A stretch of 64,000 nucleotides of DNA from an uncultured Bacteroidota bacterium (GCA_963779225.1 CAVZWW010000003.1:3445504-3509503); one strand, 5' to 3'; positions 5,496-11,593 are shown, counted from the stretch's first letter. Numbers and translations: made by a program. Notes: generated by a model from the sequence alone, not told the origin.

Positions 5496-6230
5496 ATGAC
5501 AGCTATGATCGGTAAACGAGTTCTTCAGCATGTTCGAAGGCTGGCACTTGTTGCGTTGGTGCTCGCCGGGTTCGCGAGTGTTCAAAGTCAGCCAAAGGCC
5601 GGCGATTGGAAGGCGACAGCAGGTTTTGGAGAGTTCACGCTTACGGTTTCCGAGGGAGGGGCAAGCATCACGAAAATCGCTTTCATGTTCATGGCATTCA
5701 ATTGTGGAGGTGTGGGCATTACGTTGTCCGGCGGAATAACCGTTATGAGCTCCTGGAGTATCACGAATAATCAGTTTACGATCACCAAGAATCTGAACAC
5801 AAGTTTCTCGGGGACGCCGTGGCCGCTCACCATAGCGGGCACGTTTAGCGCATCGGGAGATCAGGTATCAGGCACCTGGAATGCAAATGTGGCCGGATCA
5901 CCCTGTTCCGGAAGCTGGGGCCCGGTCGGCCAGGTAGTGTCTGTAGAAGAAATCCGTGACATTCCCGCGCGGTATGCGTTGGGGCAAAACTACCCCAACC
6001 CGTTCAATCCCTCGACGATGATCTGTTACGAGTTGCCACGGAAGTCGGCTGTCCAACTGACCGTCTTCAACAACCTCGGTCAGCAGGTGGCTCAGCTCGC
6101 CAATGGCGACATGGAGGCGGGGTATCATGAGGTGCTGTTTGACGGAAGCGATCTGTCAAGCGGCGTGTACTTCTACCGCCTGAGGGCCGGGGATTTTGTA
6201 GAGACGCGCCAGTTGGTGCTTATGCGATAG
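5496..6230 (+). CDS. Secreted protein with T9SS C-terminal sorting domain; uncharacterised beta-rich cargo domain
   Basis: Signal-peptide-like N-terminus (RRLALVALVLAGFASVQS) and [13 protein letters not shown]...SSGVYFYRL...QLVLMR C-terminus. Start at 5496 or 5505. Confidence 0.85.
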   Translation: MTAMIGKRVLQHVRRLALVALVLAGFASVQSQPKAGDWKATAGFGEFTLTVSEGGASITKIAFMFMAFNCGGVGITLSGGITVMSSWSITNNQFTITKNLNTSFSGTPWPLTIAGTFSASGDQVSGTWNANVAGSPCSGSWGPVGQVVSVEEIRDIPARYALGQNYPNPFNPSTMICYELPRKSAVQLTVFNNLGQQVAQLANGDMEAGYHEVLFDGSDLSSGVYFYRLRAGDFVETRQLVLMR

Positions 6231-6270
6231 GAACATTTCGCTCCCCCGCTGCCGTACACACGGTGAAGAA

Positions 6271-6310
6271 AAAGGGCTGTCCCAGAAGTCCAGGGACGCC
6301 CTTTCTTTTT
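6271..6310 (+). terminator. Rho-independent terminator-like hairpin, copy 1
   Basis: AAAGGGCTGTCCC-loop-GGGACGCCCTTT followed by CTTTTT, ~40 nt after the stop codon. Confidence 0.75.
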
Positions 6311-6313
6311 GAA

Positions 6314-6403
6314 ATCGTGTAGAAGAAGGCCGTGGAGAAGAAAAAGCACAAGGTCGGGGAGAAGGCGCAGGACTTATTCAGGCATGGTGAAGATGTAGAG
6401 AAG
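6314..6403 (+). pseudogene. Possible internal relic of an IS1182-family transposase
   Basis: Reads IV*KKAVEKKKHKVGEKAQDLFRHGEDVE. With TAG read as former TGG this resembles the FVWKKSVEK...EE..YG..D segment recalled for IS1182 transposases. No start codon and no catalytic DDE region. Confidence 0.35.
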
Positions 6404-6404
6404 T

Positions 6405-6490
6405 GTGCCCCAGCCAGAGGCTCTGCTTGAGGCACAAGTTGAGGCACATCGTGAGCCACAAGCTGAGGCACTGAGCCTCATGAGCTTTGT
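6405..6490. repeat. Mosaic intergenic repeat block B
   Basis: TGAGGCACA-agt-TGAGGCACA-tcg-TGAGCCACA-agc-TGAGGCAC-TGAGCCTCA-TGAGC, with 12-bp periodicity. Confidence 0.8.
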
Positions 6491-7595: not shown

Positions 7596-8853
7596 ATGAG
7601 AACTCAAACCATCTGTCTCGCACTCGTCCTCGTTCTGGTTTGTCCCTATGCGTCCGGTCAATGGGTGAAAACCGCCGGACCTTATGACGGCTCTATAAGA
7701 TGCTTTGCCGTTTCGGGCACGAATCTCTTTGCCGGGACTTCTGGGGGCGTCATTCTTTCCACCAACAACGGCACAAGCTGGACAGCAGTGAACACCGGCT
7801 TGACGCGCGCTGATGTCCGTGCTCTTGCCGTCTCCGGCACGAATGTCTTTGCCGGGACCGGGAATCAGAGCTATGGCCCCGTCTCAGATGGTCACGGTGT
7901 CTTTCGTTCCACCGACAACGGCACAAGCTGGACGGCGGTCAATGAAGGGTTGCCGAAGGATACATATGACACTACACGATATCTTTCCATCCAATGCTTT
8001 GCATCGAGCGGCACGAGTCTCTTTGCCGGAACTTGGGACGGCGTCTTCCTTTCCACCGACAACGGCACAAGCTGGACAGCAGTCAACACCGGCTTGACGA
8101 ATACTCAAGTCTTTTCTCTTGCCGTTTCGGGCACGAAACTCTTTGCCGGGACTCAGGATGGCGTCTTTCTTTCCACCAACAACGGCACAAGCTGGATTCG
8201 TCTTTTCATCAGCGGCTTGCCGCACAGTTCCTTCTGGTCTCTTGCCATTTCGGGCACGAATCTCTTTGCCGGGACTGACGGCTCCGGCGTCTTTCTTTCC
8301 ACCGATAGCGGCACAAGCTGGACTCAAGTCTTCGTCAGCTTGGGAGTCCATGCTCTTGCCGTTTCGGGCACGAATCTCTTTGTCGGGGATAATTACCGCG
8401 GCGTCTTTCTTTACACCAACAACATCGCAAGGAAGACTCCAGTCAACACCGGCTTGACGAACATTCACGTCTCGTCTCTTGCCGTTTCAGGCACAAATCT
8501 CTTTGCGGGAACCGAGGGCGGTGGCGTCTGGAGTCGACCGTTATCGGAGATGATCACCTCAGTCGAACCCGTCACGAGCCAATTGCCGCACGAGTTCTCG
8601 CTTCGTCAGAACTACCCCAACCCCTTCAATCCCTCGACGACGATCTGTTACGAGTTACCAAGGAAGTCGGCTGTCCGGCTGACCGTCTTCAACAACCTCG
8701 GCCAGCAGGTGGCTCAGCTCGCCAATGGCGACATGGAGGCAGGATATCATGAGGTGCAGTTTGACGGAAGCGAGTCTGTCAAGCGGCGTGTACTTCTATC
8801 GGTTGAGGGCCGGTGATTTTGTGGAGACGCGCAAGTTGGTGCTTATCCGATAG
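7596..8853 (+). CDS. Secreted BNR/Asp-box repeat beta-propeller protein with T9SS sorting domain (+1 frameshift at ~8774)
   Basis: Signal peptide and about seven ~40-aa repeats ([25 protein letters not shown]), then [13 protein letters not shown]. Removing one base at ~8774 restores [29 protein letters not shown] ending at 8853, colinear with the paralogue. Confidence 0.85.
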
Positions 8854-8896
8854 GGCCGTTTGGCCGCCCCCCCACTGCTGTACACACGGCGAAGAG

Positions 8897-8937
8897 AAGG
8901 GGCTGTCCCAGAAGTCCGGGGACGGCCCTTTCTTTTT
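8897..8937 (+). terminator. Rho-independent terminator-like hairpin, copy 2
   Basis: GGGCTGTCCC/GGGACGGCCC stem followed by TTTCTTTTT. Confidence 0.75.
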
Positions 8938-8940
8938 GAA

Positions 8941-9111
8941 ATCGTGTAGAAGAAGGCCGTGGAGAAGAAAAAGCACAAGGTCGGGGAGAAGGCGCAGGAC
9001 TTATTGAGGCATCGTGAAGATGTAGAAAAGGAAGAGACCAACGCCTACGGAGAGAAGGACATGGGGGACGAGCGTGCGGTGAAGCCGGAGTTGATCCGCC
9101 GGAAGACTTAG
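8941..9111 (+). pseudogene. Possible internal relic of an IS1182-family transposase (longer copy)
   Basis: IV*KKAVEKKKHKVGEKAQDLLRHREDVEKEETNAYGEKDMGDE...; family assignment is from motif memory only. Confidence 0.4.
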
Positions 9112-9112
9112 A

Positions 9113-9340
9113 CTGAGGACTTCCGGGCCCCACTTGAGCCTCAGCCAGGGCACATGTGGCACAGTGGCACTTCTTGAGTCTCTGGCGACATGTAAGCACG
9201 AGCCCCACTTGAGCCCCAGCCAGAGGCTCTGCTTGAGGCACAAGTTGAGGCACTGAGCCTCCTGAGCCCTGGCGCCACACGCGCCTGAACGTGCCTGCGG
9301 CACGGCTGAAATCTACTCACCCCCCGTGACATTCAAGAAA
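9113..9340. repeat. Mosaic repeat block C plus a third stub of the leader-start motif
   Basis: Shares CTTCCGGGCCCCACTTG, CCCAGCCAGAGGCTCTGCTTGAGGCACA and GCCACACGCGCCTG..C..GCCTGCGGCACGGCTGAAAT.TACTCA with block A. Ends in CCCCCCGTGACATTCAAGAAA. Confidence 0.85.
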
Positions 9341-9401: not shown

Positions 9402-10013
9402 TTACTTCCAAGTCGGAGGTCGAAAGAGTTTCCTACCTCCACCAATATTGATTACGTCGTCCAGTTGACATGTTTTCAACTGCTTCTCTCGGATACGAGT
9501 ATAAGAATCGCAAACTTCTATCAGCTGTTCGGCCTTCCGACCGATAGGAATAGCTACGCGGACTTGTTTGGAGGGATAAAGAGTTTTAACCGCCTGGATC
9601 GCCGGGATCTGATCGCTATCCCCGGACACTATCACTGAAATGTCGTGAAGATCTTGAATGGCAAAACGGAAAAGGTGGATTGCGATATTAACGTCTGTTT
9701 GCTTTTCTTCTCTGCCCTTGTACTGCTTCCCGCAAACAGAACAAAGCCTGTCGCGTTGCTTGAACTCACCATATACTGTTCGCACTCCCTTTAACTCATT
9801 TGCCTGAATGAGCAGTTTGTGTCTGACCACTTTGTCCGGTTTCCACGTCTGCAGTGCTGTGAAGTAATACACTCCCACGATTTTGTCTGTCTTGGGGACA
9901 AGAATGCGAGCCAGCTTGTCAAAATCCATCCATTTATATTTGTGATACGCGGGCTCATCGTCTAACGCATGGTAGAGATTGAATCCGTCAACAAAGACTA
10001 TTACCTTCGACAT
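9402..10013 (-). CDS. NYN (LabA/DUF88, PIN-like fold) domain ribonuclease with a CxxC insertion
   Basis: VFVDGFNLYH, YYFTA, CSVC, EEKQTDVNIA and SGDSD motifs. GGAGG lies 4 nt before ATG 10013. Visibly lower GC than its flanks. Confidence 0.9.
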   Translation of the reverse strand: MSKVIVFVDGFNLYHALDDEPAYHKYKWMDFDKLARILVPKTDKIVGVYYFTALQTWKPDKVVRHKLLIQANELKGVRTVYGEFKQRDRLCSVCGKQYKGREEKQTDVNIAIHLFRFAIQDLHDISVIVSGDSDQIPAIQAVKTLYPSKQVRVAIPIGRKAEQLIEVCDSYTRIREKQLKTCQLDDVINIGGGRKLFRPPTWK

Positions 10014-10022
10014 GTACCCTCC

Positions 10023-10053
10023 AAAAAAAACCCGAGTCCACAGGGATCTCGGG
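10023..10053 (-). terminator. Terminator-like hairpin in the NYN leader, directly before the RBS
   Basis: Minus strand CCCGAG-ATCCCTGTGGA-CTCGGG-TTTTTTTT-GGAGGGTAC-ATG. Confidence 0.7.
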
Positions 10054-10091
10054 GCCAATGAGACACGACATCTCAAAGGGATGACATTGCC

Positions 10092-10120
10092 AATATAAGC
10101 CCCCCCGACCGGAAATGCAA
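10092..10120 (-). promoter_or_regulatory. Sigma70-type promoter for the NYN locus
   Basis: Minus strand TTGCAT-N17-TATATT. Confidence 0.65.
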
Positions 10121-10242
10121 ATTGCTGGAATACTATCGTGCGAAAAATCGACCGAAGAACCCGTTGGACAGCCCGATAATTCATTGTTTTTCAGCATTTT
10201 ATGCGAGCATCATTTTCGCCATCGTTTTTGTCAGAAATGTCA

Positions 10243-10362
10243 TCACTTCCGACGAGCCTGAATCCATCGGAGCATCGGAGCCCACACTTTGGTCGGAGCA
10301 TTCGTTGCATAGAAGAGATCGATGTGGCCAAATTCTGTCTCAATAGGCGCGGAAATACTCAC
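10243..10362 (-). pseudogene. Possible C-terminal relic of an alpha/beta-hydrolase
   Basis: Reads ...ETEFGHIDLFYATNAPTKVWAPMLRWIQARRK*, like the catalytic-His tail of alpha/beta hydrolases. No upstream body is visible. Confidence 0.3.
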
Positions 10363-10672
10363 AGTGAACCCCCTGCACGATTGGTACAAGGGGTTCTGTG
10401 CCGGCCTACCGGCGTTGCGGATTGTGAAGCCAGTTTAAGGGTAAGCCATTCGATAGGACTTGTCGGGCGAAATCTGACCAAGCGAAATCTGACCACAATA
10501 TTCAGGCTACAAGACTCTGATACCGGAAGAACCCGACCGGCAAAATATGACGATATTGTTCGCATTAAAACACCGTACACCTCGGGTAACTGCTGCAAAC
10601 TTGCGGCTTGTGTGGCGTTTGGGTATCTTACCGCTGCCTTCCCTCTCTTTCCCATAGCTCAAGGAGTCACCC

Positions 10673-11593
10673 ATGAAAGTCCTGATCACCGACGGCATCT
10701 CGCCCGAAGGTGCCAAAATCCTCACAGACGCAGGCCTCACCGTCCACCAGCAGAAGTTGACCCCGGAAGAACTCCTCACCCGGATCGGCGACTACGAGGC
10801 AATTATCGTACGTTCCGCCACGAAGGTCACCAAAGACGTCATCGAAGCCGGGAAGAATCTCAAGGTGGTGGCGCGCGGAGGCGTCGGACTCGACAATATC
10901 GATACTGTTGCCGCCGCAGCGAAGCACATCCTGGTGCTTAACACCCCCGGAGCATCCGCAATCTCCGTCGCGGAACTCACACTGGCGCACATGCTTGCCG
11001 TCAGCCGTTTCCTTCACGTCAGCTCCATGGACATGCGCCAGGGAAAGTGGCCGAAGAAGGAGTACTCGGCAGGAATCGAACTCTACAAGAAGACTCTTGG
11101 CATCATCGGACTGGGAAGCATCGGCAAAGAAGTCGCACGCCGCGCTCTCGGGTTTGGCATGCACGTTCTGGCATACGACCCTCCCTTCTCCCCGATGGAT
11201 TTCATCGTCGAGATCACCACCAAAGAACGCCTGCTTGCTCAGGCGGATTACATCACGCTCCATCTTCCATTCGACAAGAAAGCGGGACCGACGGTCACCA
11301 AAGTTGATTTCGACGCCATGAAGAAAGGTGTTGTGCTGGTGAATTGCGCACGCGGCGGGATTGTTGATCAGAAAGCACTCCTGGAGGCGCTGAACAGCGG
11401 CAAAGTGGCCGCCGCCGCACTCGATGTCTTCGAGCACGAACCTCCCACCGAGGACGAGCGCGCGCTTATCAACCATCCCCACGTCAGCGTCTCACCGCAT
11501 ATCGGAGGGTCCACCGTGGAGGCGCAGGATCGGGTCGGGGCCGAGATCGCCATCAAAGTCGTGAAAGCCCTTGCACCGGACAAAATGCGGTAA
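10673..11593 (+). CDS. serA: D-3-phosphoglycerate dehydrogenase / D-2-hydroxyacid dehydrogenase (short form, no ACT domain)
   Basis: IIVRSATKV, RGGVGLDNID, GIIGLGSIG, VNCARGGIV, LDVFEHEP and SPHIGGST. Confidence 0.85.
   Translation: MKVLITDGISPEGAKILTDAGLTVHQQKLTPEELLTRIGDYEAIIVRSATKVTKDVIEAGKNLKVVARGGVGLDNIDTVAAAAKHILVLNTPGASAISVAELTLAHMLAVSRFLHVSSMDMRQGKWPKKEYSAGIELYKKTLGIIGLGSIGKEVARRALGFGMHVLAYDPPFSPMDFIVEITTKERLLAQADYITLHLPFDKKAGPTVTKVDFDAMKKGVVLVNCARGGIVDQKALLEALNSGKVAAAALDVFEHEPPTEDERALINHPHVSVSPHIGGSTVEAQDRVGAEIAIKVVKALAPDKMR

Follow-up and report, generated by a model that had tools for sequence, protein, structure and literature searches.

A conserved, terminator-ended small RNA linked to HEC-09 family NYN nuclease genes: a candidate two-part module resembling type III toxin-antitoxin systems

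Layout of the NYN locus

A 64,000-nt stretch of DNA from an uncultured Bacteroidota bacterium (GCA_963779225.1 CAVZWW010000003.1:3445504-3509503), called the window here, carries on its minus strand a gene for a predicted NYN domain nuclease, directly preceded by a short structured RNA that ends in an intrinsic terminator. A preliminary description of this sequence had listed a hairpin, a terminator, a U8 tract, GGAGG, an ATG and an intact NYN open reading frame (ORF), and all of them lie where it had placed them. It had likened the layout to that of type III toxin-antitoxin (TA) loci and offered two functions for the leader, that of a small RNA (sRNA) partner of the nuclease or that of an autoregulatory attenuator. 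The comparison with related loci partly supported this interpretation. The elements of the locus are listed below in the order of transcription.

10115..10120 (-): -35-like hexamer TTGCAT of the sRNA promoter, read in the sequence
10092..10097 (-): -10 hexamer TATATT, separated from TTGCAT by a 17-nt spacer
10089-10085 (-): CAAUG; its partner CAUUG lies at 10060-10056 (-)
10023..10085 (-): sRNA gene of about 63 nt, delimited by covariance model matches, minimum free energy (MFE) fold and covariation
10085-10080 (-): 5' tail of the sRNA, GUCAU plus C
10082-10077 and 10047-10042 (-): two copies of AUCCCU
10055..10079 (-): P1 hairpin of 10 pairs with two U-U mismatches and the loop GUCGU; C10079-G10055 is the outermost pair
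10075-10070, 10069-10065 and 10064-10059 (-): P1 core, formed by UGAGAU, the loop GUCGU and GUCUCA
10054 (-): single-C linker between P1 and P2
10053-10031 (-): P2 hairpin, also the intrinsic terminator, with CCCGAG at 10053-10048 and CUCGGG at 10036-10031
10023..10053 (-): P2 sequence and tail, CCCGAG-A-UCC-CUGU-GGA-CUCGGG followed by U8
10030-10023 (-): U8 tract
10018..10022 (-): Shine-Dalgarno sequence GGAGG, directly after the U-tract
10013-10011 (-): ATG start codon of the NYN gene
9402..10013 (-): gene for a NYN (LabA-like, PIN-fold) nuclease of 203 aa, HEC-09 family; its stop codon ends at 9402

The promoter proposed earlier, TTGCAT-N17-TATATT, is present, and relatives carry boxes resembling TTGACA-N17-TATAAT at the same distance from the RNA motif. 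Taken by itself, however, the match is at chance level, since a promoter scanner found 1 match in the window against 1.1 expected; the scanner's own call was the overlapping TTTGCA-18-TATATT, with 9/12 matches. The terminator was overlooked by a simple scanner because its 11-nt loop exceeds the 8-nt loop limit of that program. Folded in isolation, the 63-nt RNA (10085 to 10023) formed exactly two hairpins (-22.7 kcal/mol, z = -3.68), and this MFE structure was identical to the consensus described below. A longer stretch of 88 nt folded only modestly better than its shuffles (z = -1.9).

Two of the finer features proposed earlier are present in the sequence but were not supported by the comparison. 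Of the two copies of AUCCCU, only the first belongs to the conserved tail AUCAUCCC, the second being located in the variable inner part of P2. As for CAAUG and CAUUG, put forward as an alternative pairing, CAAUG lies ahead of the point where the conserved RNA starts and shows no conservation. The lower GC content reported for the gene was borne out, with values of 0.46-0.48 against 0.57-0.62 in the flanks.

The NYN frame remains open upstream through the entire sRNA, as far as 10184, and gives a 260-aa ORF (window 9402-10184, minus strand). Gene callers are therefore likely to extend the protein too far and take in the RNA gene. Several database NYN homologues are called at 220-293 aa.

A conserved RNA with two covarying helices

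Comparison with homologous loci (numbered L001 and upward) revealed a family motif consisting of 5'-AUCAUCCC, the P1 hairpin, GGC, a P2 terminator enclosed by CCC and GGG, and a U-tract. In nearly all of 80 loci, taken from one-per-species genomes, the order 5' of the NYN gene was a sigma70-like promoter, AUCAUCCC, a hairpin of variable sequence, GGC, CCC(G/A)...(C/U)GGG, the U-tract and the start codon. The earlier suggestion to look upstream of NYN homologues for a covarying leader with a terminator thus gave a strongly positive result, and the layout is family-wide.

The structure was derived from a MAFFT alignment of 22 diverse leaders. The RNAalifold consensus contained two helices with 19 pairs, 15 of which showed compensatory changes. 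Pair counting in the same leaders gave 94.3% of cells paired, compared with 78% in shuffles and 23-51% when the partners were slid by 1-3 columns, and none of 500 shuffles matched any observed pairing measure. A model-based alignment of 68 distinct sequences showed compensatory changes in all 19 pairs; this alignment was fitted to the model and serves as corroboration only. All 10 pairs of P1 underwent compensatory changes among the relatives. In P2, the closing CCC/GGG was invariant in the 22 sequences and the inner pairs covaried. The frequent G-U pairs fit an RNA read from the sRNA strand and not a DNA palindrome. Invariant or near-invariant positions were the 5' tail AUCAU, the CC/GG closing P1, the single-C linker and the CCC/GGG closing P2. 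Both loops have a YNGUG-like consensus in many lineages, so that the RNA resembles two similar hairpin units. No conserved alternative (antiterminator) pairing was seen, and both RNAalifold and the pair counts supported P1 and P2 alone.

Three covariance models, R1, R2 and R3, were used, the last of them trained with the window, L001-L005 and L019 left out. The window scored 79.9 bits with R1, 75.1 bits with R2 and 73.3 bits with the leave-out model R3. The R3 match covered window 10087..10024(-) with an E-value of 8e-18, while the next best match in the 64 kb reached 9.4 bits. Rfam 15 returned no family at gathering score for the window (searched as 4 kb and as 91 nt), 17 loci and one array locus; the best score in the narrow searches was noise (RF02278, 14.4 bits against a gathering score of 50). 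Taken together, the comparative data indicate that the leader is a real, conserved RNA.

A further observation concerned L019 (3923-3986). Compared with window 10024-10087, its P2 and U-tract are identical, its P1 sequence differs, and the NYN proteins are 48% identical. The identical P2 may reflect strong constraint on this hairpin or an exchange of RNA segments.

Linkage of the RNA to NYN genes across phyla

The 80 loci span Ignavibacteria, Omnitrophota, Planctomycetota, Acidobacteriota, Desulfobacterota, Chlamydiota, Gemmatimonadota, Spirochaetota, several Proteobacteria and others, with a patchy distribution over the phyla. Model R1 found 73 matches in 659 kb (both strands), each of them adjoining a NYN gene, with one match per locus outside arrays. 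Of the 14 loci missed by R1, 10 gave a match with R2 when its filters were off, and variant forms were recognized by eye in L062, L073 and L082, L071 being ambiguous. At least 75 of the 80 loci thus bear the motif. An exact-pattern scan of metagenome contigs gave 120 matches, followed by NYN in 94 cases; about 7 of the 26 without NYN also lacked P1 and were chance matches. On viral contigs, 26 of 27 matches were located directly upstream of NYN, and the exception was a weak one (L268, E 0.11). A cultured carrier of the module is Magnetospirillum sp. UT-4 (L083), for which no RNA sequencing runs are listed.

The spacing of the elements was also preserved. The median gap between the U-tract and the start codon was 12 nt. 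It did not exceed 35 nt in 40 of 41 loci, and there is no gap before the ATG in L027, L031 and L038. This leaves too little room for a promoter of NYN's own, so that NYN in tandem loci would have to be transcribed by read-through of the terminator. Across the loci, the distance from the end of the -10 box to the first C of the conserved CCC was most often 10-13 nt, which places the predicted transcription start at the conserved tail, (A/G)UCAUCCC.

The NYN protein

The window protein matched Pfam NYN (PF01936) with an E-value of 7.6e-13 and 49.6 bits against a cut-off of 24.2, and it matched no other Pfam family. The PADLOC hidden Markov model (HMM) of HEC-09 (PDLC04163) aligned with it from end to end (1-203 of 203, E 7e-53); ToxN was absent from its PADLOC matches up to E 0.1. 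The motifs DGFN, EEKQTDV, SGDSD and CxxC, essentially those pointed out earlier, were invariant or near-invariant in 31 homologues. Invariant in all of these were D9, E102-E103-K104, T106-D107, D132, D134 and C91-x-x-C94, which include the catalytic residues D9, D107, D132 and D134.

The AlphaFold2 model was confident (pLDDT 94.9). Its only significant neighbor in the PDB, as found by Foldseek, was the LabA-like NYN protein 2qip (VPA0982; E 2.8e-9, TM 0.60/0.73), and a sequence search of solved structures gave no informative relative. The window protein shares its fold and catalytic acidic residues with LabA-like NYN proteins (PF01936), but its clade adds a conserved β-hairpin insertion with the invariant CxxC (residues ~78-104) as well as the associated RNA. 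We know of no function for 2qip. These features indicate that the NYN protein is an intact predicted nuclease. Membership in ToxN, CptN or TenpN was considered and ruled out by the Pfam, Foldseek and PADLOC assignments.

An indexed search gave 627 homologues, most of them stand-alone proteins of 202-204 aa, and an exhaustive search gave 1011 clusters at 50% identity with E <= 1e-30. The HEC-09 HMM also matched homologues from divergent loci, array loci, viral contigs and E. coli plasmids.

Inheritance, genomic context and mobility

In L003-L005, a protein 82% identical to the window NYN stands in another context, between CHAD/His_Phos and TilS/Hpt/FtsH. The leader is near-identical to that of the window from GTCATCCC through the U-tract. 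Upstream of the -10 box, these loci are unrelated to the window and carry the consensus TTGACA-N17-TATATT. The segment common to the window and the L003 context in blastn was window 10085..9418, from the first base of the RNA to the end of NYN. It was 74.7% identical overall, and the RNA alone was identical at 62 of 64 positions. The comparison indicates that the unit shared with the distant context is exactly the sRNA plus NYN, co-inherited, and that the RNA is more strongly constrained than the coding DNA.

In close relatives, the NYN module is found alone among housekeeping genes, at differing sites. Inspection of its neighbors showed that the window copy is not embedded in an Hma, bacteriophage exclusion (BREX) or restriction-modification defense locus. 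These neighbors are a divergent serA-like gene and genes for proteins sorted by the type IX secretion system (T9SS). Upstream of the sRNA there is no minus-strand gene in the window, the neighbor on that side being the serA-like gene.

HEC-09-type NYN homologues of ~31% identity were the sole cargo of ColE1-like plasmids of 3.5-4.3 kb in E. coli, Salmonella and Klebsiella, whose helix-turn-helix gene resembles a Rep protein. There were 338 plasmid records, and the pHFQ5 type was present in 12 of 5426 complete E. coli genomes. Model R1 detected no motif on these enterobacterial plasmids. At the usual place of the motif they have a longer, different leader, in which hairpins show compensatory changes and a strong terminator is located 20 nt before the ATG. 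This leader also carries a GGATGACAT-AA-ATGTCATCC palindrome (L090 1162-1500, pHFQ5, NZ_AP023432.1; also in L091 and L092). Overall, the distribution is as expected for an accessory, selfish or defensive module.

Several other observations were made on the surroundings of the module. Genes for tRNAs lie ~100-350 nt from it in L003 (5650-5723), L009 (3585-3656) and L057 (3743-3816), and are possible integration hot spots. In L061 (1684-3566, minus strand), a GmrSD-type restriction endonuclease (PF03235 + PF07510) and a small NikA-like/ribbon-helix-helix protein are found beside the divergent sRNA-NYN pair. In the window, a duplication with 84-97% identity takes in the 3' end of a gene for a T9SS-sorted protein together with the ~500 nt that follow it (8775-9280 versus 6152-6490, and 8607-8773 versus 5985-6151). 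The second copy stops ~120 nt from the NYN stop codon. It corresponds to the module-start stub that the NYN gene had been said to abut, which holds approximately, as the repeat copy ends near 9267-9280, ~120 nt past the stop codon. On the other side, ~570 nt of low-GC non-coding DNA (window 10100-10672) separate the sRNA promoter from the serA-like gene. Blocks 10361-10472 and 10595-10809 of the serA-side DNA are kept in L001 and L002 with 82-93% identity, and a terminator-like hairpin lies on the plus strand at 10203-10219. The serA-side non-coding DNA (window 10100-10672) had no Rfam match.

Divergent, arrayed and orphan copies of the RNA

The window and most loci contain a single RNA unit in tandem with NYN. 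Three other arrangements bear on whether the RNA is a gene of its own. First, in the Ignavibacterium locus L047 and the Acidobacteriota loci L061 and L066, which represent two unrelated lineages, the RNA gene is on the opposite strand, divergent from NYN, with its own -10 box and terminator. No gene is found downstream of the divergent RNA in L047, so the RNA there cannot belong to the NYN mRNA. Second, four loci carry three tandem units behind one promoter (L085 380-585; L080 3775-3970; L223 1590-1790; L226 4800-4965). P1 differs between the units, each copy begins with UCAUCC(C), and the U-tract is present on the last unit only. L222 gave double covariance model matches. Third, orphan sRNAs exist. 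In L101, L106 and L181 they are followed by truncated NYN remnants, cut after ~10 codons. In orphans of the L012 type (L113, L127, L166, L171 and L192), the deletions of NYN have at least four distinct end points, all of them just past the terminator. L070 has a second sRNA copy (2366-2434) and a NYN fragment (1661-1846).

The cassette of promoter, sRNA and terminator was also found before another gene, which encodes an SDH/ClpP-like serine protease (PF01972) ending in a Cys-rich C-terminal tail (L182 1670-2930). Together, the divergent loci, arrays and orphans argue for a separate RNA partner and against a purely cis-acting attenuator, so that the first of the two functions offered earlier for the leader is favored and the second disfavored. 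Two more cassettes were noted, one before a distant NYN-like ORF (…VNVYIDYANV…, L196 488-720) and one before a short ORF (L200 1668-1800).

The L012 locus itself (357-1080, labelled Brocadiaceae) has sequences of 95-99% identity in RNA libraries (runs X25-X38). The libraries came from cold seeps, lakes, groundwater, aquifers and crude oil, an unusually cosmopolitan range for which mobility and contamination are both possible explanations. One variant in these libraries has position 419 joined to 989, with most of NYN deleted. The runs with the L012-type module are assembled contigs and say nothing on RNA ends or abundance. The module of the window itself was not found in the RNA sequencing runs searched. 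A metatranscriptome contig from run X16 was considered as a candidate for it; only 36 nt of P1 match and the flanks differ, so this contig comes from a homologue in another organism.

A possible RNA-controlled ribonuclease

The RNA is best read as an antitoxin or regulator of a NYN toxin. Transcription from the sigma70-type promoter would start at the conserved 5'-(A/G)UCAUCCC, and the RNA would fold into P1, the single-C linker and P2, with P2 and the U-tract terminating transcription. In tandem loci, NYN would be made only by read-through, and the terminator would keep the ~60-nt RNA far above the level of the NYN mRNA. The RNA might then bind NYN via the invariant 5' tail and the helix junction (CC/GG, C, CCC/GGG), and hold the nuclease in check. 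In multi-unit loci, NYN or a host RNase might cleave the precursor at the repeated UCAUCCC. If the supply of RNA were lost, through phage transcription shut-off or plasmid loss, free NYN would cleave RNA and arrest growth. On the comparative data, we hold the chances about even that the locus is a type III-like two-part module of this kind, in which a terminator-ended sRNA restrains an RNase made by read-through and its loss frees the nuclease. The broader proposal is put forward tentatively and at slightly less than even chances. It holds that the loci represent a widespread, previously unrecognized RNA-protein TA or abortive-infection module, whose sRNA, in one to three units, acts as inhibitor and possibly processed substrate of the NYN/PIN-fold RNase.

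The likeness to the type III systems ToxIN, CptIN and TenpIN is considerable. Promoter, non-coding RNA, Rho-independent terminator and endoribonuclease gene follow one another in the same order, with the exception of the three divergent loci. The predicted toxin has the NYN domain and invariant catalytic Asp residues of an enzyme of this kind. In type III systems the terminator sets a high ratio of RNA to toxin, as is predicted here. Both are small mobile modules on chromosomes, plasmids and phage-like contigs, and the NYN loci with three tandem units behind one promoter resemble antitoxin arrays. They differ in that the nuclease fold here is metal-dependent and NYN/PIN-like instead of ToxN/Kid-like, in that there is mostly one two-hairpin unit instead of a repeat array, and in that conservation of the RNA extends to its terminator hairpin. 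Type III systems beyond the ToxN-like families have a precedent in AvcID, which reportedly has a non-RNase toxin (a dCMP deaminase) and an sRNA antitoxin beside the toxin gene, and is activated by transcription shut-off. Its RNA is unrelated in sequence and structure to the NYN-linked RNA.

The protein family has been described before. HEC-09 became a candidate because of its embedding in Hma defense loci; its publication presents a lone gene for an NYN RNase resembling MARF1 and mentions no RNA component (bioRxiv 10.1101/2024.01.29.577857). The window protein belongs to the same PADLOC family, but this copy is outside any Hma system and is preceded by the RNA gene. Literature searches on NYN/DUF88 with non-coding RNA, RNA motif, antitoxin or type III TA found no description of the RNA or of such a link. 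This agrees with the preliminary description, which knew of no characterized NYN system of this kind; the protein family itself is already catalogued as HEC-09. What appears to be new is the RNA component and the make-up of the module from two parts, the protein family having been known only as a candidate.

Several points weigh against an antitoxin function. A HEC-09 construct that included ~150 bp of upstream sequence failed to protect from the phages with which it was challenged, and toxicity was not reported for it (bioRxiv 10.1101/2024.01.29.577857). Classical type III antitoxins are tandem direct repeats cut by ToxN-like toxins, whereas most loci here have a single unit and the fold of the toxin is another. 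Divergent loci are rare, only 3 having been seen in roughly 170 loci with the motif. No excess of the RNA region was apparent in metatranscriptome contigs of a related module, which come from libraries ill-suited to 60-nt RNAs. Orphan RNAs outnumber RNA-less NYN genes, but the asymmetry is about what a 10-fold difference in target size predicts. We considered this asymmetry as decisive evidence for an antitoxin and rejected it, since either target size or ascertainment bias could account for it.

The main rival explanation is that the RNA is the partner of NYN in a ribonucleoprotein (RNP) and not its antitoxin. It would then serve NYN as a cofactor, activator, specificity element, sensor or decoy substrate required for its action, such as RNA processing or a defense set off by a phage factor. 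The linkage, covariation, divergent orientation and arrays fit such a partner equally, and the HEC-09 construct without reported toxicity or defense is in line with it. The invariant single-stranded 5' AUCAU and the nucleotides of the helix junction also resemble a protein recognition surface. However, the RNA has no variable guide-like segment, its loops and stems varying only as the structure demands. A terminator-imposed excess of RNA over protein is what one would typically expect with an inhibitor and not with a stoichiometric cofactor, and the status of sole cargo on tiny plasmids suits an addiction or defense module better than a housekeeping RNP. We regard an RNP partner as unlikely, though still a serious competitor of the antitoxin.

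Still less probable, in our judgment, is a purely cis-acting leader with no function as a free RNA, whether an attenuator, an autoregulatory 5' untranslated region through which NYN binds or cleaves its own mRNA, or a small riboswitch. Such leaders, like those of ribosomal-protein genes, also place a short structured RNA and an intrinsic terminator just before an ORF, and in ~98% of the loci the RNA does lie on the same strand, 5' of NYN, with the terminator right before the start codon. In the window, moreover, CCCUUU from the tail and P1 could pair with the Shine-Dalgarno sequence GGAGGG in read-through transcripts. This pairing of the 5' tail with the Shine-Dalgarno or start region is not general, as many loci lack a Shine-Dalgarno sequence. 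An attenuator or riboswitch would be confined to the strand of its gene, while the RNA of L047, L061 and L066 is encoded on the other strand from NYN, complete with -10 box and terminator. It also forms three-unit arrays, precedes other genes as a cassette, and persists as orphan copies with an intact promoter. Covariation supports P1 and P2 with no conserved antiterminator, and Rfam holds no match.

Finally, the weakest view, on which the hairpins would do no more than end some upstream transcript, or would have arisen by chance, near an unrelated nuclease gene, could appeal to the chance-level promoter match and the modest fold of the 88-nt stretch, but it is already refuted by the comparative data, namely the leave-out score of the window, the conservation and covariation of the element across phyla, and the lack of any minus-strand gene upstream of it beside the divergent serA-like gene.

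NYN proteins of this large family occur in many phyla, on viral contigs and on small plasmids of E. coli, Salmonella and Klebsiella, and they are annotated merely as NYN domain-containing proteins or as the unproven defense candidate HEC-09. Recognition of the RNA partner changes how NYN loci are to be annotated, cloned and assayed, and the covariance models from this analysis can find further members directly. The E. coli plasmids would be a tractable laboratory model. If the RNA is indeed an antitoxin, type III TA systems would gain a new toxin fold and a new RNA family, and a compact RNA-controlled RNase would become available for study or use as a tool. The "single-gene" HEC-09 would then become a two-component, type III-like system, which would explain its null result as a plain gene.

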